A model generated the notes under the pieces. It did no database searches. It saw nothing but the letters and a program-made list of their open reading frames with translations, and was not told where the DNA came from. Made by a program: the position numbers and the translations under genes. This document shows, piece by piece, positions 21,952-44,718 of a DNA stretch of 61,382 bases; within the stretch, counting starts at the first letter, position 1; every line of letters starts with the position of its first letter. Source of the stretch: Patescibacteria group bacterium (GTDB lineage Bacteria; Patescibacteriota; Minisyncoccia; Phycocordibacterales; PALSA-1337); NCBI GenBank assembly GCA_040388415.1, contig JAZKBV010000002.1:1-61382 (forward strand), read 5' to 3'.

Positions 21952-22497
21952 TTATGCAACCTGTAGTTTAGATTCGAGTTTACTCAGACGTCGCCCATGC
22001 TTATTAATCACTGTTTCTTCAAGACCATCGAACCTATTTTCTAATCTATCAAATCGTCCTTCCAAAGTATCAAAACGGATATCCATTTGATTGAATCTCT
22101 CATCAACTTGTTCGAATCGTTCATCAATTTTTACAAACCTCGAATCCATTTCATTGAAACCAACTGCGGTCATTCGTGCTAATTCATCGAATGAATTCTC
22201 GAGATCAGCTTTGGTAGGCAGATCTTTCACAATACTTTTAACTTCATTGAGCTCATCTTTGGTGGCAAGCTTACTAACGGCATTATCGATATATTCGTAC
22301 GTTGGAAGTTTGCTGATTGATTCAGCTATTGTTTTAATGTTCATAGATAAAGCACCTACATTCGTAGACAAAGAGTCAACACTCGCTGATACAGATTCTA
22401 CACTCGCGGATACCGACTCTACACTCGCTGATACAGACTCTACACTTGCGGATACAGATTCTAAAGTAACCGGTTCAGATATTTTTGTTTGTGACAT
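21952..22497 (-). CDS. repeat-containing coiled-coil protein (hypothetical)
   Basis: 181 aa. N-terminal (ESVSASV)x4 + DSLSTNV heptads, and a C-terminal xRFxxxD/E heptad array (DERFEQVDERFNQMDIRFDTLEGRFDRLENRFDGLEE). Confidence 0.7.
   Translation of the reverse strand: MSQTKISEPVTLESVSASVESVSASVESVSASVESVSASVDSLSTNVGALSMNIKTIAESISKLPTYEYIDNAVSKLATKDELNEVKSIVKDLPTKADLENSFDELARMTAVGFNEMDSRFVKIDERFEQVDERFNQMDIRFDTLEGRFDRLENRFDGLEETVINKHGRRLSKLESKLQVA
22357..22461 (-). repeat. 21-bp in-frame tandem repeat (about 5 units) encoding ESVSASV heptads
   Basis: gattctacactcgcggatacc / gactctacactcgctgataca ... units differ mainly at synonymous positions. Confidence 0.85.
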
Positions 22498-28402: not shown

Positions 28403-31400
28403 TTAAGCCTTCAACCCGAGCACATCACCAAAGTTGATGCTTGTGACATTTGTAAGTTTCTTTAACTCATCACCGTACTTCTCAACTATTGAACGCTCTG
28501 CTTCAGTCACAACCAAAGAAGTTTTATCTCCTACAGACAAGCCTTTCTCCTTTCTCATATCCTGTACTTTGCGGAGGAGCTCGCGGAATTCGCCTTCCAT
28601 TTTAAGCTCTGGGGTAATAACTGTATCCAATTCGACAGTGAATGTAGGGTCATTTTGGTCGACACTCTTTTCGAGCACAACTTCTTTGACATTAAGCTCA
28701 TCCATGAGAATAGACTTGAGCTCATCCCAGCGAGGAATGCTATGCTCGCGATGTTTGATAGAAAGCTTCTGTAACGGTTGACGGACATTTATCTTGCTCT
28801 CCGTTCTCTTCATAAGACCTGCAGTAGCAAAAGACTGAACGATCTTCATTCCTGACAAAACATCCTCATCCACCCTTCCTCCAACTGGCCACGATTCAAG
28901 ATGAACACTTTCCCCATCACCACCTACTTCTTGATAAATGAACTCAGCGAAGAAAGGCGTGAACGGTGCCATGATTTTCGCCAATGTAAGAAGAACATAT
29001 TTCGTTGTCGCCAAAGCTGCTTCTTTATCAGCTATATCATCTCCCTTGAAACGGTCACGTGATCGGCGAAGATACCACTGCGATAGATCAGCGATGAATT
29101 CGCGCATCTCGCGGGTAGGCTCGAGGAAAACATATGCGTCCATATTACGCGTCACATTCTCTACAAGCTGATTCAGGCGCGCCAATATCCATTGATCAAT
29201 AATATTCTGTGATTTTCCTAGCTCCTGACTTCTAACTTCTAACTTCTTATCTTCATACGTCTTATAAAATGTCGTTACATTCGCGACTAGATTGAACACC
29301 TTCTTCACAATCTCATCAACAGTCTTTTCTTCGAAGTTCTTCGACTCACCAGGTTGATTGACTGAATACATCCAGAAACGTAATGCATCTGCGCCATACT
29401 TGTCCATCATGTTCCATGGATTGATGACGTTGCCGATAGACTTCGACATTTTCTTCCCCTCCCCGTCGAGGATATGACCGAGACAGATCACATTCTTGTA
29501 TGCTCTGCCTTTGCCCATGAGAACGCCGATGGCGTGAAGTGTATAGAACCAGCCACGAGTCTGATCAATCGCTTCTGAAATAAAGTCAGCTGGATATGCC
29601 AGTTTTTGTTTTGTACCAAATAGTCCTTTCTTCCCTTCAAACGGATAATGATCCTGCGCGAATGGCATGCCACCAGAATCGAACCATACATCCATAACCT
29701 CTTTTGCACGAGTCATCTTGCCGCCACATGAACATGAAAATTTCACTTCATCGATGAATGGCTTATGGAGGTCGAGCTCGTATTCTGAGTTATGTGGCAC
29801 TACTTTCATATTCAACTCGCGTACACCAGCCTTTTCGATGTAATTATTCTTTTCATATTCGGCGGTCTGCTCCCTGTCCCAACCCTGGGCAGCAGCGATG
29901 AGCATCATGGCTGGACTGCCATGAGTAACGATCAGAACGTTCTTGCCGGCATATTTTGATTCAATATCGTACAAGAAATCACCGACGCGAGTTTTCACAT
30001 CCGCATGATTCTCTCCATTTTTTGGATGAACTACGAAGCGACTATCATTGAGCGGGAAAACTTTTAACAGCTGTTCGAGCGTCATGCCATCCCATTCGCC
30101 AAGCTCGATTTCCCTCAGACGATTGTCTGTCACAAATTGTTCGTCGGCCAGACCAAGCGCCTTTTGCACAAGCTGTGCAGTCTCCTGAGTGCGAATGAAT
30201 GGAGAAACGACGATCAGGTCAATCTTCAATTTTTTGATGCCTTCTATAGCTAAAGCTACTTTCTTTTTACCATGCTCGGTCAGATGATTTTCAAGTGTGA
30301 TATCACTGTTCAAAACATCTTTCGCATTGCACTCTGCTTCGCCATGACGCATAACATGATAGGTATTCTTTGCGGGCTGAGCGATGTCCTCGATAGATCC
30401 GACAACTTTTCTCTTGTTACATGTATCGCAATTCCATACTGGCAATGGCGTGCCCCAATAACGTTCGCGTGAGATCGCCCAATCTTTGACATCTTTGAGC
30501 CATTCGCCAAAACGACCATCCTTTATGTACTCAGGCTCCCAATGGATGCCTTCATTTTCTTTTAACAATTTGTCACGCAAATCTGACATGCGAATATACC
30601 ATGAGTCGCGCGCAAAATAGATGAGCGGAGTCTTACAACGCCAACAATGAGGATAGGTATGCTTTATGTTTTCCTGAGCGAAAAATGCTCCATTTTGTTT
30701 CAGATAATTCACAATATCAACATCAAGGGTCGGCTTACCATTTTCATCTTTTTCTTTGACGAATCTACCCGCAAGGAAGTCAGTTCCCTTTTTGAAGGTT
30801 CCGTCGTCATTCACTAAATGATATTTAGGCAGATTGTTCTTTGTGCCGAGCTCAAAGTCGTCCTGACCATACATGGGAGCGATATGCACGATGCCAGTAC
30901 CATCAGCAGTTGTGACAAAATCGCCCGCATATACTTTGAATGCATTTGGCAACTTATCTTTTTCTGCTCCAGTGACTGCGTCATTCAGATAAGGAAAGAG
31001 GGGCTCGTAGGTGAGGCCGACGAGGTCAGAGCCTTTGATGGTTACAAGTATTTCATGCTGTGTCTCTTTCAATGAAGACAATCGTTCTTTGGCTAGAATA
31101 AGGATGTCGTTGCTGACCTTAACCTTCACATACTCAATATCCTTCCCTACCGCCAAAGCGACGTTGCCCGGGAGAGTCCAAGGCGTCGTTGTCCATGCAA
31201 GAATATAAGTATCTTTTTGTCCTATTACTTTAAATTTCACATAAAGTGAAAGATCCTTCACCTCCTGATAGCCTTGCGCCAACTCATGTGACGAAAGACC
31301 GGTACCACAGCGCGGACACCATGGAACAATCTTATAGTCTTTATAGAGCAAACCTTTCTCATCGACAGTTTTGATGATATTCCAAACTGACTCGATATAC

Positions 31401-31873
31401 TGAGGCTTGTAGGTAATATAGGGATTTTTGAGATCAACCCAGTATCCCATACGGTTGGTGAAATCTTCCCATTCGTGTACATAGGTCCAGACGCTGTCCT
31501 TACATTTTTGATTGAATGCAGCGATGCCATACGATTCGATCTCTTTCTTTGATTTGAGACCAAGCTCTTTTTCTACTTGAAGCTCAACAGGCAGACCGTG
31601 CGTATCCCAACCTCCCTTTCGGCGGACGTGGAATCCTTGCATGGTCTTGTAGCGAGGGATGGCATCCTTGAATGCGCGTGCTTCGAGGTGGTGTATACCG
31701 GGACGACCGTTGGCAGTTGGCGGACCTTCAAAAAAAACGAACTCCCCTTTTGGCGACTCTTTATCAAGAGACTTCTGAAACACATCTTTCTCTTTCCAAA
31801 ATGCCAAAACATTCTCCTCACGAAGAGCGTGGGGAGATTTAACTTTAAGGGCGTCGGGTGATTCTTGGGACAT
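28403..31873 (-). CDS. ileS: isoleucyl-tRNA synthetase with nested histidine-phosphatase domain
   Basis: 1156 aa with PPTANGRPGIHHL (HIGH region), the CP1 editing region, Zn knuckles (WCPRCGT, HCWRCKT, CDTC, CSCGG), DVWFDSG and GKKMSKS. The insert is described separately. Confidence 0.95.
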   Translation of the reverse strand: MSQESPDALKVKSPHALREENVLAFWKEKDVFQKSLDKESPKGEFVFFEGPPTANGRPGIHHLEARAFKDAIPRYKTMQGFHVRRKGGWDTHGLPVELQVEKELGLKSKKEIESYGIAAFNQKCKDSVWTYVHEWEDFTNRMGYWVDLKNPYITYKPQYIESVWNIIKTVDEKGLLYKDYKIVPWCPRCGTGLSSHELAQGYQEVKDLSLYVKFKVIGQKDTYILAWTTTPWTLPGNVALAVGKDIEYVKVKVSNDILILAKERLSSLKETQHEILVTIKGSDLVGLTYEPLFPYLNDAVTGAEKDKLPNAFKVYAGDFVTTADGTGIVHIAPMYGQDDFELGTKNNLPKYHLVNDDGTFKKGTDFLAGRFVKEKDENGKPTLDVDIVNYLKQNGAFFAQENIKHTYPHCWRCKTPLIYFARDSWYIRMSDLRDKLLKENEGIHWEPEYIKDGRFGEWLKDVKDWAISRERYWGTPLPVWNCDTCNKRKVVGSIEDIAQPAKNTYHVMRHGEAECNAKDVLNSDITLENHLTEHGKKKVALAIEGIKKLKIDLIVVSPFIRTQETAQLVQKALGLADEQFVTDNRLREIELGEWDGMTLEQLLKVFPLNDSRFVVHPKNGENHADVKTRVGDFLYDIESKYAGKNVLIVTHGSPAMMLIAAAQGWDREQTAEYEKNNYIEKAGVRELNMKVVPHNSEYELDLHKPFIDEVKFSCSCGGKMTRAKEVMDVWFDSGGMPFAQDHYPFEGKKGLFGTKQKLAYPADFISEAIDQTRGWFYTLHAIGVLMGKGRAYKNVICLGHILDGEGKKMSKSIGNVINPWNMMDKYGADALRFWMYSVNQPGESKNFEEKTVDEIVKKVFNLVANVTTFYKTYEDKKLEVRSQELGKSQNIIDQWILARLNQLVENVTRNMDAYVFLEPTREMREFIADLSQWYLRRSRDRFKGDDIADKEAALATTKYVLLTLAKIMAPFTPFFAEFIYQEVGGDGESVHLESWPVGGRVDEDVLSGMKIVQSFATAGLMKRTESKINVRQPLQKLSIKHREHSIPRWDELKSILMDELNVKEVVLEKSVDQNDPTFTVELDTVITPELKMEGEFRELLRKVQDMRKEKGLSVGDKTSLVVTEAERSIVEKYGDELKKLTNVTSINFGDVLGLKA
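29780..30367 (-). other. in-frame histidine-phosphatase (PGAM/His_Phos_1-like) domain inserted in IleRS (aa ~503-698)
   Basis: Motifs YHVMRHGEAECN (RHG codons at ~30341-30349), SPFIRTQETA, REIELGEWDG and LIVTHGSP. Flanked by IleRS blocks PLPVWNCDTCNKRKVVGS and DLHKPFIDEVKFSCSCGG. Confidence 0.8.
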
Positions 31874-34671: not shown

Positions 34672-35919
34672 CTATTTTGAAACTTTGCGAAGCGTCTCAT
34701 CGATCTTCTTTGCGATCATTTTAAAATCCTTTTCTTTTCTTCCACGAGTTGTTTCAGCGGCTGTGCCGATGCGGATACCAGAAGGGTCAGCGGGTGGTCG
34801 CACATCAAATGGCACCGCATTTTTATTTACGATAATACCTGCTTTTTCAAGGGCATCGCTGGCATCTTTACCTGATACACCCCCTGCCCCCTTTTCATTC
34901 TTCTTTCCGTCATTCCACGTATCGATAAGGATAAGATGAGAATCTGTACCGCCAGAGATAAGCCTCCAACCGCGCGCATGGAGCTCAGTTGCAAGAACTG
35001 AAGCATTTTTTACTACTTGATCAGCGTATTTTTTGAAGCTTGGACCCGATGCTTCCTTGAGTGTGATAGCAACTGCTGCAATCTGGTTTTCATGGGGGCC
35101 ACCTTGAAGGCCAGGAAATACGGCGCGATCTATTTTCTTGTCGAGCTCACGGGCGTCTTTTTTTGCAAAGATGAGGGCTGAACGTGGACCACGGAGCGTC
35201 TTATGCGTAGTTGTCGTGACGATATCAGCGTATGGAAATGGTGACGGGTACGCTTCACCTGCGACAAGTCCGGCGATATGCGACATATCAACCATGAGGA
35301 GCGCTTCAGCTGAATCAGCGATCTCACGCATAGCTGCCCAGTCGATACGGCGAGGATATGCAGTGAATCCAGCCACAATGATAGCCGGCTTCTCTTTTAT
35401 CGCTAACTCGCGAAGTTGATCATAGTTGATCATTTCAGTGGTCGCATCGAGACCGTATGGCACTTGGATCCAAAACTTACCAGTCGCAGAGACTTTGTGA
35501 CCATGAGTAAGGTGGCCTCCATGATCAAGAGACATGCCCATGATCTTTGAGGGAACGAGAACTTCAGCGTTTTCGACGCCAGGTAACGTTATCTTTTTTG
35601 GAGGAATGAGCGCAGTGTAGACCGCAAGGTTGGCTGGTGAACCTGAGAGCGCCTGGACGTTCACATGCCACTCAGTCGGATCAAGTTTAAAAAGTTTGAG
35701 GGCGCGCTCTATGCAAAGTGACTCGATCTTGTCGACAATCTCGTTACCACCGTAGTATCTCTTGCCGGGATACCCTTCTGCATATTTGTTCGTTAGCTCT
35801 GAACCCAATGCTTCGAGCACATCTTTTGAAACGTAATTTTCTGAGGCAATGAGGTTGATAACTTTCTTCTGGCGCTTCTTCTCGGTCTCTATGAGTTTTT
35901 TGATTTGAGTGTCTTTCAT
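34672..35919 (-). CDS. glyA: serine hydroxymethyltransferase
   Basis: 415 aa with NLIASENYVS, TTTTHKTLRGPR (PLP Lys) and SGGTDSHL. Confidence 0.97.
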   Translation of the reverse strand: MKDTQIKKLIETEKKRQKKVINLIASENYVSKDVLEALGSELTNKYAEGYPGKRYYGGNEIVDKIESLCIERALKLFKLDPTEWHVNVQALSGSPANLAVYTALIPPKKITLPGVENAEVLVPSKIMGMSLDHGGHLTHGHKVSATGKFWIQVPYGLDATTEMINYDQLRELAIKEKPAIIVAGFTAYPRRIDWAAMREIADSAEALLMVDMSHIAGLVAGEAYPSPFPYADIVTTTTHKTLRGPRSALIFAKKDARELDKKIDRAVFPGLQGGPHENQIAAVAITLKEASGPSFKKYADQVVKNASVLATELHARGWRLISGGTDSHLILIDTWNDGKKNEKGAGGVSGKDASDALEKAGIIVNKNAVPFDVRPPADPSGIRIGTAAETTRGRKEKDFKMIAKKIDETLRKVSK

Positions 35920-36369: not shown

Positions 36370-37017
36370 CTACTTAATTCCCAAATATTGCTTCATCTGG
36401 ACAAGAAAATCTCTCTTCACTATCTCAAGTGGCCGATTTGAGTCAACAATGATATATGGTGTGCCCAATTCCTTAACTTTTTCAAAAAATTTCAGATACC
36501 CTTTGCGGACATTCTGATGGAAGGTGATTTCCCTATCATCGAAATGATCGTACTGCGTGCCGATATCGAGAGATTGATTGCGACCATGAGCGCGACGGAG
36601 ACCTTCTTCTGGATCAACGTCAACAAAAACATAGAGATCAGGAGTGACCATAAGCTTGGCTCTCATGCTCCAAAAGAGGTCTTCGAGAAGGCTCGACTGA
36701 CTCGATATCTGATATGCATATGATGAGGCATCAAAACGATCTGCAATGACAGGCACGCCTTTTTTAAGACTTGGAATAATGACATTTGCTACGTTATCAA
36801 AACGCGCCGCGAACATGAGGCAGAGCGTCGTCTCAGGAGGCGCATCTTTTGCGAGAGGGTTCTTTATCGCCGCAGTGCGGATGAGCTCGGCATATGGCGA
36901 TCCACCTGGCTCACGAGTCAGCGTAATGTTATCGCCCAATGTTTCCTTGAGCACCCGGACCAGGGTCGATTTTCCTGAACCTTCCCCTCCTTCTATGACG
37001 ATAAATTGTGGTTTCAT
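36370..37017 (-). CDS. tmk: thymidylate kinase
   Basis: 215 aa with FIVIEGGEGSGKST (P-loop), TREPGGSPYAELIR and DRFDASSYAYQ. Confidence 0.92.
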   Translation of the reverse strand: MKPQFIVIEGGEGSGKSTLVRVLKETLGDNITLTREPGGSPYAELIRTAAIKNPLAKDAPPETTLCLMFAARFDNVANVIIPSLKKGVPVIADRFDASSYAYQISSQSSLLEDLFWSMRAKLMVTPDLYVFVDVDPEEGLRRAHGRNQSLDIGTQYDHFDDREITFHQNVRKGYLKFFEKVKELGTPYIIVDSNRPLEIVKRDFLVQMKQYLGIK

Positions 37018-37032: not shown

Positions 37033-37521
37033 TTATCTCTTGAACTGCCCTGTTGCTCCATCAACCAAGTACACATCCCTGATACCTGCAGCAATCATGG
37101 AGTCCCAGCATGGCTTACAGCACCACCAGTGTCCATACAAATAGAGGTCTGTGCCCTGCGCTGATTGACCAATCTTTTTCTGCTGTGCAACAGCATCTTT
37201 TGCTGCACGCGCTTCTGCGTGATGCTTATTTTTTGAACAACCGGGGCACATCCAATACTTTTGACCAGAAGGTATTTTCAGTAAACGACGCACGCACCAC
37301 CCTTTTTTGTGCAAAGCAATGAGTTTTTTATTTTTAAGCGCAGATTGATTTGCACCGCGACCGATAATCTTTTCATTCAAAACCACCACTGCCCCCGTTG
37401 GATGCCCCTCATCGGTCGACTGAGTATTACGAACCTGCTTTGCTTGATCCATAAATACATTCGACTCAGGAACATATTTTATAGTTCTTCCTTCAGGCAG
37501 ATAGGGGTAGTGTTCATTCAT
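37033..37521 (-). CDS. dCMP/cytidine deaminase-family protein (ComEB-like)
   Basis: Start set at MNEHYPYLP (ATG 37521). The zinc motifs HHAE ... CCKPC (HAE/PCxxC) and an extra CPGC pair are present. The longer track ORF (to 37764) runs antisense into the divergent gene. Confidence 0.8.
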   Translation of the reverse strand: MNEHYPYLPEGRTIKYVPESNVFMDQAKQVRNTQSTDEGHPTGAVVVLNEKIIGRGANQSALKNKKLIALHKKGWCVRRLLKIPSGQKYWMCPGCSKNKHHAEARAAKDAVAQQKKIGQSAQGTDLYLYGHWWCCKPCWDSMIAAGIRDVYLVDGATGQFKR

Positions 37522-37527
37522 CCCTCG

Positions 37528-37539
37528 ATTATATATAAT
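37528..37539. promoter_or_regulatory. back-to-back -10 boxes in the 27-bp divergent intergenic region (ATTATATATAAT)
   Basis: The minus-strand TATAAT (37528-33) is 6 nt from ATG 37521. The plus-strand TATAAT (37534-39) is 9 nt from ATG 37549. Confidence 0.45.
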
Positions 37540-37548
37540 AAATCCATT

Positions 37549-38409
37549 ATGACCAAATTCGATGAAATATATCAGGACATGATCCGCAAGATTATGGAAG
37601 AAGGTGAAGAAGAAATGAACAAGAGTAAACAAGCCGGCAGTGAACGTGCGACCTATATGACCAAAGCTATCCCTGGTATGCATTTTTCTATAGACATCGA
37701 GAAGGACGGCTTCCCTCTCCTCACTCTTCGTAAAATTCCAATAAAGGTCTTCGTCTCTGAACAAGCATGGTTCATTATGGGCTCACGTAAACCAGATGAT
37801 TTCCTCCGCGAATACACAAAGATCTGGGATGCCTTCACCAACCCTGGCGACGTCGTCACTGTCGCCTATGGCTACCGCTGGCGCAAGCATTTTGGACGCG
37901 ACCAGCTCAAACTCCTCATCGATCTCCTTCGCGCTGAGCCAGGTTCACGCCATGCAGTTGTGGTTACTTGGGACCCTGCTCAAGATGGCCTATCACTACA
38001 AAAGAAAAAGAATGTGCCATGTCCGTATACTTTTACCGTCAATATCATCGGTGGACGCCTACACCTCCACAACATCGTTCGATCAAATGACATGCTCCTT
38101 GGCGCGCCACATGATATCGCTGGCTTTGCCCTCCTCCAGTGCATACTCGCCCAGGAGCTTGGCGTCAGACCGGGCGTCTACAGTCACTCTATATCAAATG
38201 CGCACATCTATGACACGCACTATGATGCAGCGCGCGAGATTATGAAGAGAAAAAATGATCACAAGACAGTCGTGCTCACATTGCCTGAAAAAACCTTTGA
38301 AAATATAGAAAAGAGAAACTTCGATGTCGTTAAGTCTATGATCGACAACCTTGCTGGACAGTATCAACCTCTTGAAGCGATCCAAGGCATCAAGATCGTC
38401 GCCTACTAA
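37549..38409 (+). CDS. thyA: thymidylate synthase (ThyA) family enzyme with Asp at the pyrimidine-specificity position
   Basis: 286 aa from MTKFDEIYQDMI. ThyA blocks: DGFPLLTLRK, SEQAWF (Glu), YGYRWR, EPGSRH, VPCPY (Cys codon 38020-22), VRSNDMLLGAPHDIAGFALL, NAHIY. D189 (38113-15) aligns with E. coli N177. Confidence 0.85.
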   Translation: MTKFDEIYQDMIRKIMEEGEEEMNKSKQAGSERATYMTKAIPGMHFSIDIEKDGFPLLTLRKIPIKVFVSEQAWFIMGSRKPDDFLREYTKIWDAFTNPGDVVTVAYGYRWRKHFGRDQLKLLIDLLRAEPGSRHAVVVTWDPAQDGLSLQKKKNVPCPYTFTVNIIGGRLHLHNIVRSNDMLLGAPHDIAGFALLQCILAQELGVRPGVYSHSISNAHIYDTHYDAAREIMKRKNDHKTVVLTLPEKTFENIEKRNFDVVKSMIDNLAGQYQPLEAIQGIKIVAY

Positions 38410-38457: not shown

Positions 38458-39090
38458 ATGTCCATCATCACCAAAAAAGATATCATCGACCGCATCCGCT
38501 CTGGCTCGCTCGTTTTTAAACCTAACCTGGATCAATTCCAACTCCAAGAGCATTCAGCTGATTTGCGCCTCGGCTTTACCTTCATGATCCCCAAGATGTG
38601 GCACATGACGCCAGGAGGACGCGAATCTCTCGATATCACCCACTTCGACAAGCGCAATCATGAATACTTTGAAGTCGTCGAACTCGAGCAAGGCCAACAT
38701 TTTGATCTGTTGCCACAAGAGTACATCCTCGTCTCGACTCTCGAGTCAGTCAAAATGCCTCGCGACTTGATGGGTATCCTCTATCCTCGTTCATCAACCA
38801 ACCGCAAAGGCCTTTCACTCGACCTCACCGGTATCATCGATGCGGGCTATGACGGTCAGCTCATCCTCCCGATCCGCAACAACACTCGTTCACAAGCCAT
38901 CAGACTCTTCCCTGGAGAGCGCCTCTGCCAAGTCGTCTTTGAAGAATTGAAAACAGAGGTCGAACCTCGCCAGAGCAAGTATCACCAAAAAGACATCATC
39001 GAGGGCGTACAGATGGAAAAGAAAGATGAAGTCGATCTCCTCACCAAAGGCGACATCAAGACACTCAAGGAAAAGTACAAGGTTGAGTAA
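38458..39090 (+). CDS. dcd: dCTP deaminase/dUTPase-superfamily protein (Dcd-like, catalytic Glu not conserved)
   Basis: 210 aa. MSIITKKDIIDRIRSG...ADLRLG, YPRSSTNRKGL and IIDAGYDGQLILPIRNN are colinear with E. coli Dcd (GRSSLARLGL, IDPGWSGCIVLEFYN). Pro138 (38869-71) sits where Dcd has Glu138. Confidence 0.75.
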   Translation: MSIITKKDIIDRIRSGSLVFKPNLDQFQLQEHSADLRLGFTFMIPKMWHMTPGGRESLDITHFDKRNHEYFEVVELEQGQHFDLLPQEYILVSTLESVKMPRDLMGILYPRSSTNRKGLSLDLTGIIDAGYDGQLILPIRNNTRSQAIRLFPGERLCQVVFEELKTEVEPRQSKYHQKDIIEGVQMEKKDEVDLLTKGDIKTLKEKYKVE

Positions 39091-39102
39091 TTTTACATAC
39101 TA

Positions 39103-39618
39103 ATGAAAACTTTTATCATCGCGGCAATAACAGCTGACGGGTACATCGCAAAAGATGCTCAACATTCCCCTTTCAACTGGACCAGCAAAGCTGATAAAAA
39201 GCGCTTCATTGAGATCACCAAAAAGGCAGGCGTCATCGTCGTCGGCTCAAGCACCTATAAAACATTCCCTGGAGCGCTCAAGGAACGCGTCAATATCGTC
39301 TACAGTCGCTCACAAAGCTTCGACGGAGCTGAAACGACTCAAGATGAGCCAGTGGAGCTTTTGAAGAAACTAGAGAGCCGTGGCTTCAAGGAAGTAGCTA
39401 TCTGTGGTGGCGAAGCTATCTATACGATGTTCATGAAAGCGAAAGTTGTCGATCGTCTCTATCTCACCGTTGAACCTATCATTTTTGGCAAGGGCGTGAA
39501 GCTTTTTAATGATGATATGCTGTTTCATCTCAAACTTGTCAGCGCTGCTGAGTCAGAGACTGGCGCCCTGCTCCTTGAATATGCGGTAGATTATTCAGGG
39601 AATCCAAAAATACACTAA
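39103..39618 (+). CDS. dihydrofolate reductase-like protein (DHFR/RibD C-terminal family)
   Basis: 171 aa with FIIAAITADGYIA...FNWTSKADKKRFIEITKKAGVIVVGSSTYKTFPG...ICGGEAIY. Confidence 0.7.
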   Translation: MKTFIIAAITADGYIAKDAQHSPFNWTSKADKKRFIEITKKAGVIVVGSSTYKTFPGALKERVNIVYSRSQSFDGAETTQDEPVELLKKLESRGFKEVAICGGEAIYTMFMKAKVVDRLYLTVEPIIFGKGVKLFNDDMLFHLKLVSAAESETGALLLEYAVDYSGNPKIH

Positions 39619-39691: not shown

Positions 39692-40369
39692 ATGAAAAAT
39701 GACAGTATACTGAACCCGACGTTTAGCGTCTGGCGCAGACTCCAACAGGGACAAGAAAAAATTCATCGTTTCGGGCAGCACTTAGCGAACCCGGAGACCG
39801 GCCACTTGCTCAGACTACAAAATGGTCATGAGCACTGTTGTTCAGTCGGATTTTTGGCGCGTTATTATCTGATCAAGATACGCCAATACATCGGGCTCGA
39901 CGAGGCATTGATTATGAACTGCTTTCGAATCCACGATATCCCCGAAGGGATACTCCTTATCGACGTCGCGGCGCATTTGAAAGTTGATAACGACGACCTG
40001 AATGAATATCTTGCCTTTGAAAAGCTCATGAAGCCACTGGGCGCAGATGTGTGGGCAGAGGAACAACGGGCATTCTTGCTTCAATTCTGCCTTAGCAACC
40101 CCACCTGCTTCCCTACCGATGCACGAATTGTCATGTCGAAGCTCTTGAAAAGCCACGGCCTGGAAGCCTTATTCTTTGACGGACTTCAACGCTTTGACTA
40201 TCTTTACTATGCCTATGAGGCACTCATTGAAAAAGAAGTGCCGAGCGTTCTGGCCCAAGTTGCGTTCCACCAGATACCGCACCTAGACCGTGTTGCGTCC
40301 AAGCTTCCTGGTTTTCATGAAGCAGTTTGGACCGACGAAAAAAGGGCGTTCTTCAAGAAGTTTTGCTAA
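39692..40369 (+). CDS. HD-domain phosphohydrolase (divergent YfbR-like nucleotidase)
   Basis: 225 aa with NGHEHCCSV ... FRIHDIPEG (H..HD pattern). Own promoter (TGATATAGT) and an AAGGA SD 8 nt upstream. More G+C-rich than its neighbours by eye. Confidence 0.65.
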   Translation: MKNDSILNPTFSVWRRLQQGQEKIHRFGQHLANPETGHLLRLQNGHEHCCSVGFLARYYLIKIRQYIGLDEALIMNCFRIHDIPEGILLIDVAAHLKVDNDDLNEYLAFEKLMKPLGADVWAEEQRAFLLQFCLSNPTCFPTDARIVMSKLLKSHGLEALFFDGLQRFDYLYYAYEALIEKEVPSVLAQVAFHQIPHLDRVASKLPGFHEAVWTDEKRAFFKKFC

Positions 40370-43854: not shown

Positions 43855-44718
43855 TTAGTCTCGAGATGCATCGAGCAAATTCTCAAAAAGGCCAAGGACT
43901 GTCATGGGTCCTACGCCACCAGGAACGGGAGTAATCGCTCCCGTCGGGCCGATTATCATCGACACTACGTCAAAATCCACATCGCCAACAAGTTTCGTTT
44001 TAGCATCCAAGCCTACTTCCCCTTCTCGAGTGATGCCGACATCAATGATGACCTGTCCTGAATGAACATGTTGAACTGATATCAAACGGGGTTTACCCAC
44101 TGCAACAATGATGGCGTCAGCACTGTTCGTTTCTTTCACCAGATCGAACGTCTTGCTATGAGCAACAGTCACCAGAGCGCCATCACGCGCAAAGACCTGC
44201 GCCACCGGTGTTCCCACCAGCGCAGATCGTCCGACAACAGTTATTTTTTTATCCTTAATGTCGATACTGTAATACGACAGTAATTCTCTAATGCCCCGTG
44301 CCGTAGCAGGGACGATAGCGTCTGGCCTTCCCTCACACAAACGCTGCACATTAAAAGCCGTCTGACCATCGATATCTTTACGCGGTTCGATAGTATTGAT
44401 TACTTCATCACGGTTGATATGCTCAGGTAATGGTAGCTGTACAATGATTCCTTTGACTAGTTGGTTTTCATTGCACTTTTTTATTTCAGCGACCACTTCT
44501 GCTTGAAACGAACCTTCCGGCAAGTGAATGTGATGCGCGACGACCCCGACTTTTTTGGCAAATGAAACTTTCGCGCTAATATACGCATTTGAGTCAGGTC
44601 TGTCCCCCACTTGAATGATGGCGAGCTCAGGCGCAGGTGTTATCTCGCTGAATTCTTTTACCAATTCAATGATCCGACTATCACGAATAATATTTCCTGA
44701 GAGAATTTTTGCTGGCAT
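43855..44718 (-). CDS. folD: bifunctional methylenetetrahydrofolate dehydrogenase/cyclohydrolase
   Basis: 287 aa with ILSGNIIRDS...AIIQVGDRPDSNAYI, VVGRSALVGTPVA and PVPGGVGPMTV. Confidence 0.95.
   Translation of the reverse strand: MPAKILSGNIIRDSRIIELVKEFSEITPAPELAIIQVGDRPDSNAYISAKVSFAKKVGVVAHHIHLPEGSFQAEVVAEIKKCNENQLVKGIIVQLPLPEHINRDEVINTIEPRKDIDGQTAFNVQRLCEGRPDAIVPATARGIRELLSYYSIDIKDKKITVVGRSALVGTPVAQVFARDGALVTVAHSKTFDLVKETNSADAIIVAVGKPRLISVQHVHSGQVIIDVGITREGEVGLDAKTKLVGDVDFDVVSMIIGPTGAITPVPGGVGPMTVLGLFENLLDASRD

Follow-up and report, generated by a model that had tools for sequence, protein, structure and literature searches.

A stretch of 61,382 nucleotides from a Patescibacteria group bacterium (GenBank assembly GCA_040388415.1, contig JAZKBV010000002.1, positions 1 to 61,382; this whole stretch is called the window below) carries at 37549–38409 on the plus strand an open reading frame (ORF) of 286 amino acids, closed by a TAA stop, that all databases label thymidylate synthase. 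It sits at a divergent junction. On the minus strand the order is arginyl-tRNA synthetase (ArgRS), serine hydroxymethyltransferase (SHMT), thymidylate kinase (Tmk) and a deaminase; on the plus strand the synthase gene is followed by a homolog of deoxycytidine triphosphate (dCTP) deaminase (Dcd), dihydrofolate reductase (DHFR) and an uncharacterised ORF, and then by the genes for L11, NusG and SecE. The enzyme has the ThyA fold (PF00303), with Asp instead of Asn at a substrate-reading position. We discuss here the evidence that it is a predicted C5-methyltransferase of deoxycytidine monophosphate (dCMP), which together with its neighbours may supply thymidylate by a route so far known from phages.

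The assignment of the fold is straightforward. The PF00303 profile covers almost the whole ORF (E = 2.1e-52; residues 7–261 against profile positions 2–252 of 266). An AlphaFold (AF2) model, computed like the other model discussed below with database homologs, has a predicted local distance difference test score (pLDDT) of 80.6, is weak only at residues 92–114 and matches canonical synthases with a template modelling (TM) score of about 0.7 at 22–26% identity; no solved structure is closer. The catalytic set known from Escherichia coli ThyA is in place as well. Glu71 in SEQAWF corresponds to Glu58, Tyr107 in AYGYRW to Tyr94, Arg178-Ser179-x-Asp181 to Arg166-Ser167-x-Asp169, and His219 and Tyr221 to His207 and Tyr209, while the nucleophile Cys158 is encoded by TGT at 38020–38022. 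In the SRH block Arg134-His135 takes the place of Arg126-Arg127, so that His stands for the second Arg. Across the orthologs Cys158, Glu71, Tyr107, Arg178, Ser179, Asp181, His219 and Tyr221 do not vary.

Thymidylate synthases read the N3-H/O4 face of uracil with an Asn, number 177 in E. coli. Here this position is taken by Asp189 (GAT, 38113–38115, plus strand). HMMER pairs the segment rsndmllgaphdiagfall without a gap with rsadiflgvpfniasyall of three solved thymidylate synthases, and a MAFFT alignment with E. coli ThyA (K-12 record) agrees; the spacing R-S-x-D-x7-(N/D) is the same in the window synthase and in thymidylate synthases. Taken together, the agreement of both programs and the equal spacing rule out a misalignment. 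Asp is found at position 177 in all 120 close homologs, in 126 of 145 alignable top representatives of a library of 50%-identity clusters, and in 80 of 80 orthologs from species-representative genomes, where Asn217 is likewise invariant and Pro159, whose codon follows that of the nucleophile (both together 38020–38025, plus strand), occurs in 79. Asp189 is neither a sequencing error nor a one-off. The first-pass annotation, made from the letters of the sequence, had named the catalytic motifs with their coordinates, had placed Asp189 opposite Asn177 and had pointed to the natural Asp179 of the phage T4 dCMP hydroxymethylase gp42. All the motifs were recovered in translation and alignment, no Asn came to stand at the critical position, and gp42 Asp179 falls into the same column, with its Cys148 and Glu60 aligned too.

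This Asp does not come alone. His147 and Gln165 support the uracil-recognition network in true synthases, and both canonical residues are lost in the window synthase, where they correspond to Pro159 and Val177. According to the MAFFT alignment the differences from E. coli ThyA are, besides N177D, H147P, Q165V, W83F, L143N, R127H and Asn for Asp205. For a broader view we compared 114 Asp-type and 18 Asn-type sequences, drawn from the top 150 representatives of the cluster library. Only those of roughly full length that have Cys at 146 and either Asp or Asn at 177 were kept, and a small number of close homologs and reference sequences was added. In E. coli numbering, position 147 is Pro in 91 of the 114 Asp-type sequences and His in 17 of the 18 Asn-type ones; position 83 is Phe in 107 as against Trp in 17, position 143 is Asn in 100 as against Leu in 17, and position 127 is Gln or His in 91 as against Arg in 17. 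Position 165 is hydrophobic in the Asp-type and Gln in 13 of 18 Asn-type sequences. The window synthase matches the Asp-type consensus at all five. As judged from these alignments, Asp189 belongs to a broader signature (D177, P147, F83, N143 and loss of Q165) common to a large Asp-type clade. In a published association study (PMC8670742), positions 177 and 147 were the two residues that best told phage contigs with modified cytosine apart from those without. In addition, the N177D and N229D mutants, as cited in the eLife 2021 article (PMC8670742), shift their preference from deoxyuridine monophosphate (dUMP) to dCMP and yield 5-methyl-dCMP. As a side observation, 57 viral ThyA homologs from IMG/VR (loci L111–L167), matched at about query residues 71–231 only, have Asn at both 147 and 177 and represent a third active-site type.

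The closest characterised relatives are found in phages. By BLASTP the window synthase is 38% identical to the enzyme of Xanthomonas phage Xp12 (176 bits), as compared with 26% to E. coli ThyA (98.6 bits) and 21% to T4 gp42 (32 bits). A search of 50,697 phage records places Pseudomonas phage PaMx74, Xp12 and their relatives at the top, with 35–40% identity and E values around 1e-48. A phylogeny of the superfamily, which had been proposed as a check on the prediction, points in the same direction: 112 of the 114 Asp-type sequences, including the window synthase, Xp12 and PaMx74, form one clade without any Asn-type sequence in 25 of 25 bootstraps of a neighbour-joining tree. T4 gp42 was left out of this tree, because with it distances became saturated and their values undefined. 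In vivo, 5-methyldeoxycytidine (5-methyl-dC) is made by the Xp12 enzyme and by five out of seven metagenomic phage enzymes related to it, and 5-methylcytosine (5mC) stands in place of all cytosine in Xp12 and PaMx74 DNA (bioRxiv 10.1101/2024.12.05.627091). In both phages the genes are ordered pyrophosphohydrolase, synthase, deaminase, DHFR.

The closest viral relatives of the window synthase, 44–57% identical, lie on five viral contigs from IMG/VR (L088–L092). A deaminase of the type found in Patescibacteria adjoins the synthase in four of these five, and one of them (L089) has a phage-like appearance and encodes a YqaJ recombinase, a genuine dUTPase and an HAD protein. These contigs suggest that the module has been exchanged between bacteria of the candidate phyla radiation (CPR) and phages.

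The window locus itself is chromosomal. The window holds the 5′ end of a 23S rRNA gene, four tRNA genes, and genes for ribosomal proteins and aminoacyl-tRNA synthetases; the locus is found on contigs of at least 618 kb, and the same synteny is seen on a contig of 618 kb. These housekeeping neighbours, the rRNA and tRNA genes and the synteny on the long contig rule out a phage or prophage origin of the gene. How widespread is this arrangement? When one genome per species was scanned, with an alignment of 11 sequences as query, a relative of the window synthase appeared in at least 396 species genomes, and the close homologs carry Patescibacteria names. The best 80 of these genomes, to which all locus counts given here refer, belong without exception to Patescibacteria and include, among others, Taylor-, Kaiser-, Adler-, Colwell-, Nomura- and Doudnabacteria. 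In 80 of 80 loci the deaminase gene lies directly beside that of the synthase in divergent orientation, with a median gap of about 52 nucleotides from start to start. The Dcd homolog follows directly downstream in 77, the three exceptions being contig ends. SHMT is linked in 62, DHFR in 45 and Tmk in 44.

The partner deaminase (37033–37521, minus strand; 162 amino acids; PF00383, E = 1.7e-11) belongs to the dCMP-deaminase family, and we predict it to act on 5-methyl-dCMP. Its motifs His101-x-Glu103 and Cys135-x-x-Cys138 are intact and conserved in 78–79 of 80 orthologs, and it has an additional conserved cluster of Cys76, Cys92 and Cys95; judging by these motifs, it is a divergent but catalytically intact member of PF00383. 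A search of solved structures with the single sequence gave no match. With a profile of the family, dCMP deaminases come first, the best solved one being that of Streptococcus mutans (2HVV, E = 3.7e-7). The AF2 model has a pLDDT of 87.8, with a TM score of only about 0.5 to the dCMP deaminases of S. mutans, T4, human and PBCV-1. The family has 834 detectable members, which carry Patescibacteria names and are called deoxycytidylate deaminase or simply deaminase.

The starts of the deaminase and synthase genes are separated by a shared divergent promoter region of 27 nucleotides (37522–37548), TATATATAAT. It contains −10-like boxes at 7–10 nucleotides from each ATG. From this spacing, the two mRNAs may lack leaders and be transcribed from a common bidirectional promoter.

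For such pairs there is a precedent. In phages, deaminases encoded in cis with synthases of this kind prefer 5mC, a preference that according to the same preprint arose several times, and they have been proposed to supply deoxythymidine (dT) nucleotides from 5-methyl-dC nucleotides, so that a second synthase is not needed; strict adjacency of the two genes is seen in 70% of cytosine-modifying phages as against 6% of unmodified contigs (bioRxiv 10.1101/2024.12.05.627091). In the cluster library, fusions of Asp-type synthases were observed to a dCMP deaminase (P0145), to a MazG/PRA-PH pyrophosphohydrolase (P0161) and to an HNH endonuclease (the three being P0145, P0161 and P0164).

Directly downstream of the synthase lies a protein with the dCTP-deaminase fold (38458–39090, plus strand; PF22769, E = 2.5e-33). 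Its Pro138 (codon 38869–38871) aligns with the catalytic Glu138 of E. coli Dcd, and the equivalents of Ser111, Arg115 and Asp128 are retained. Pro is found at this position in 76 of 76 orthologs. Because the catalytic Glu is replaced by Pro, the protein cannot deaminate by the known mechanism. It still scores above the TIGR02274 cut-off and is probably mis-annotated everywhere as dCTP deaminase. The most plausible role would be that of a pyrophosphatase, converting either dCTP to dCMP or deoxyuridine triphosphate (dUTP) to dUMP. T4 gp56, considered as a model, does not align with this fold and was dropped.

The remaining genes complete the picture. Tmk (36370–37017, minus strand; PF02223, E = 6.3e-37) is immediately downstream of the deaminase, and SHMT (34672–35919, minus strand; PF00464, E = 9e-156) would supply methylene-tetrahydrofolate. 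A DHFR of the RibD_C/DHFR_1 type was found by profile match at 39103–39618 on the plus strand, and FolD, also of the folate cycle, at 43855–44718. A tblastn search of the 61-kb window with four ThyA-family queries found only the gene at 37549–38409, and no ThyX motif occurs in a real ORF of the window.

Can these elements be joined into a pathway? We consider it rather probable that the synthase is an Xp12-type dCMP C5-methyltransferase working together with the deaminase, so that dCMP would be converted to 5-methyl-dCMP and then to thymidine monophosphate (dTMP), a phage route turned into a housekeeping pathway that avoids dUMP. The Glu-less Dcd homolog would in its most likely role hydrolyse dCTP to dCMP and thereby feed the methylase. 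The Asp-type synthase, going by its clade and signature, would then turn dCMP and methylene-tetrahydrofolate into 5-methyl-dCMP and dihydrofolate, with Asp189 reading the N3/N4 face of cytosine. The divergent deaminase would convert 5-methyl-dCMP to dTMP, as its linkage and the phage precedent suggest, and the adjacent Tmk, which would phosphorylate dTMP to thymidine diphosphate (dTDP), suggests that deamination takes place at the monophosphate level. SHMT, DHFR and FolD would run the folate cycle, with DHFR recycling the dihydrofolate that reductive methylation leaves behind. The net chemistry would be that of the classical route with the steps swapped, and no uracil nucleotide, neither dUMP nor dUTP, would be formed.

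The same genes can be read in another way. An ordinary dUMP-using synthase might simply tolerate the Asp, with the deaminase converting dCMP to dUMP and the Dcd homolog serving as dUTPase in a normal operon for dTMP. Deaminase, synthase, a dUTPase-superfamily protein, DHFR, Tmk and SHMT are just the set of the classical route, which fits equally well; the core motif of the Dcd homolog, IDAGYDGQLILPIRN...PGER, resembles that of E. coli Dut; and a protonated Asp could in principle hydrogen-bond dUMP. The enzyme also passes the TIGR03284 'thymidylate synthase' cut-off (120.1 bits against 108.35), databases name it accordingly, and papers on CPR bacteria treat the gene as a standard thyA. All the same, we regard this explanation as unlikely. 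Two true synthases turn to dCMP when their Asn is mutated to Asp, the Asp of the window synthase is accompanied by linked active-site changes common to proven dCMP methylases, and the enzyme groups within the Asp-type clade, separately from every Asn-type sequence. Four other equivalog models of NCBIfam (NF002497, NF002495, NF002496 and NF002499) are failed by a wide margin (139 against 327 bits, and similar), and a strictly adjacent pair of deaminase and synthase genes, typical of phages that modify cytosine, is seldom seen on unmodified contigs. Beyond what speaks for a classical operon, several further points weigh against a cellular dCMP methylase. The 38% identity to the characterised Xp12 enzyme is low, the tree is a simple neighbour-joining one of 132 sequences, and the search for a second synthase covered the 61-kb window only. 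Orthology of the window deaminase with that of Xp12 is unsupported (pairwise E = 0.068), which fits the view of the preprint that the preference for 5mC had repeated origins. The characterised members of the Asp-type clade, the Xp12 enzyme and five metagenomic ones, are all from phages and none is cellular, and mSCD-B5, the one well-studied phage deaminase, acts on triphosphates and single-stranded DNA, not at the level of dCMP (bioRxiv 10.1101/2024.12.05.627091).

Intermediate between both readings is an enzyme of dual specificity, methylating dCMP as well as dUMP, with a deaminase acting on dCMP as well as 5-methyl-dCMP, so that dTMP would be reached in either order. The first-pass annotation had allowed for activity on dCMP 'in addition to' dUMP, a residual dUMP activity is compatible with the sequence, and substrates with a substituent at position 5 are tolerated by known dCMP deaminases. 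Nothing positive speaks for such a dual enzyme, and the loss of both His147 and Gln165 argues for a committed switch; we hold it to be distinctly unlikely.

The specificity for a cytosine nucleotide that had been deduced from the Asp is supported by the linked signature and by a clade shared with proven makers of 5-methyl-dC, and its suggested link to the divergent deaminase by the adjacency in 80 of 80 loci, the fusion of a deaminase to an Asp-type synthase, and the use of the same pair for dT in phages. Two choices had been left open at that time. Between methylation and hydroxymethylation, methylation is much more likely, because DHFR is linked, the enzyme belongs to the Xp12 clade and identity to T4 gp42 is just 21%. 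A gp42-like hydroxymethylase making 5-hydroxymethyl-dCMP would share Asp at the Asn177 position and the RSND context. We nevertheless judge it extremely improbable: the BLASTP score to gp42 is 32 bits, the window synthase clusters with methylases, gp42 has Thr and not Pro at 147 and Val at 83, and a hydroxymethylase does not need DHFR, whose linkage fits a reductive methylation that yields dihydrofolate. Between a thymidylate route and modified-cytosine DNA, thymidylate supply is much more likely. That these Patescibacteria put 5-methyl-dCTP into their own chromosome, as pre-replicative 5mC for part or all of their cytosine, is conceivable because the parts of the module are those of 5mC-phages (pyrophosphatase, dCMP methylase, 5mC deaminase and DHFR). 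We found no positive support for this idea and consider it very improbable; if it were true, pre-replicative substitution of a base would be seen for the first time in a cellular genome.

Phages provide precedents for the kind of enzyme as well as for the chemistry in two steps. The apparent novelty is that a large lineage of bacteria uses them as a fixed chromosomal thymidylate module, which has a deaminase family of its own and a Dcd partner without the Glu. Our literature search, which was incomplete in coverage, turned up no account of a dCMP-methylase route in cells, so an earlier description is possible; searches on thyX in CPR bacteria and on the PDB codes 9LN0, 8Y1W and 4XJC gave nothing useful. 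To our knowledge, textbooks regard the dUMP route as universal for organisms with ThyA. If the dCMP-methylase route holds true, a whole class (Paceibacteria/Parcubacteria, with relatives in at least 396 species genomes) would make thymidylate without dUMP, and a 5-methyl-dCMP route so far known only from cytosine-modifying phages would serve ultra-small bacteria. Avoiding dUMP and dUTP would bear on uracil misincorporation and on the question why reduced genomes retain this set of genes. Genes labelled by automated annotation as 'thymidylate synthase', 'dCMP deaminase' and 'dCTP deaminase' would then carry names that mislead or are wrong, reconstructions of metabolism in CPR bacteria would have to be revised, and gene exchange between CPR bacteria and phages would be indicated for this module. 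The deaminases would, moreover, constitute a large new family of candidate 5mC-accepting enzymes, which are sought for methylation sequencing.

Some other observations in the window are worth recording. At the end of the operon, an ORF of 225 amino acids (39692–40369, plus strand) has a homolog in three of the 80 related loci and no match in Pfam, NCBIfam or PHROGs; lacking both family and conservation, it was left out of the module. An HD_3 protein (PF13023; 31904–32491, minus strand) is encoded between the isoleucyl-tRNA synthetase (IleRS) and ArgRS genes, three genes from the thymidylate cluster. This family presumably includes 5′-deoxynucleotidases of the YfbR type, and the protein could be related to the handling of deoxynucleoside monophosphates. 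The IleRS-like gene (28403–31873, minus strand) is unusually long with 1156 amino acids, and a counterpart of 1186 amino acids in a related locus (L006, 1146–4706) has a histidine-phosphatase (His_Phos_1) match inside the synthetase. Finally, an ORF at 21952–22497 on the minus strand contains a peptide in tandem repeats, SVESVSASVESVSAS..., close to its N-terminus.

How does the window system compare with those already known? With canonical ThyA from E. coli and Lactobacillus casei the synthase shares the fold, the catalytic Cys, Glu58, Tyr94, Arg21, Arg126, Arg166, Ser167, Asp169, His207 and Tyr209, and presumably the folate-dependent reductive methylation; it differs by N177D, H147P, Q165V, W83F, L143N and R127H, and in its predicted substrate, dCMP. 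With T4 gp42 it has Asp179, Cys148 and Glu60 in the same columns, the RSND context and, as predicted, dCMP as substrate in common. In contrast to the window synthase, gp42 transfers a hydroxymethyl group without oxidation of the folate, carries Thr at 147 and Val at 83, and is 21% identical. The phage pairs of the mSCD-B5 type likewise combine an Asp-type synthase with an adjoining PF00383 deaminase; mSCD-B5 needs triphosphates, whereas the adjacent Tmk in the window suggests the monophosphate level.

The nearest known counterpart is the enzyme of Xp12 and PaMx74 (EC 2.1.1.54). It has the same ThyA fold, with Asp at the Asn177 position, Pro at 147, Phe at 83, Asn at 143 and a hydrophobic residue at 165, and the same motifs AYGYRWR-HFGRDQL, WDPA-DGL...KNVPCP and RS-D...P-D; it belongs to the same clade, and its gene is likewise linked to those for a deaminase and DHFR. 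There are several differences nonetheless. Xp12-type enzymes are encoded by phages in whose DNA 5mC replaces cytosine, whereas the window gene is chromosomal, located among housekeeping genes and universal in a bacterial class. At R127, where the second phosphate-binding Arg would stand, the window side has His or Gln, and the partner deaminase is from another branch of the family than that of Xp12. The nucleotide-supplying partner, MazG or an HAD hydrolase in the phages, would be the Glu-less Dcd-fold protein in the window, where Tmk and SHMT are also linked. The presumed output of the window system, finally, is dTMP and not DNA containing 5mC.

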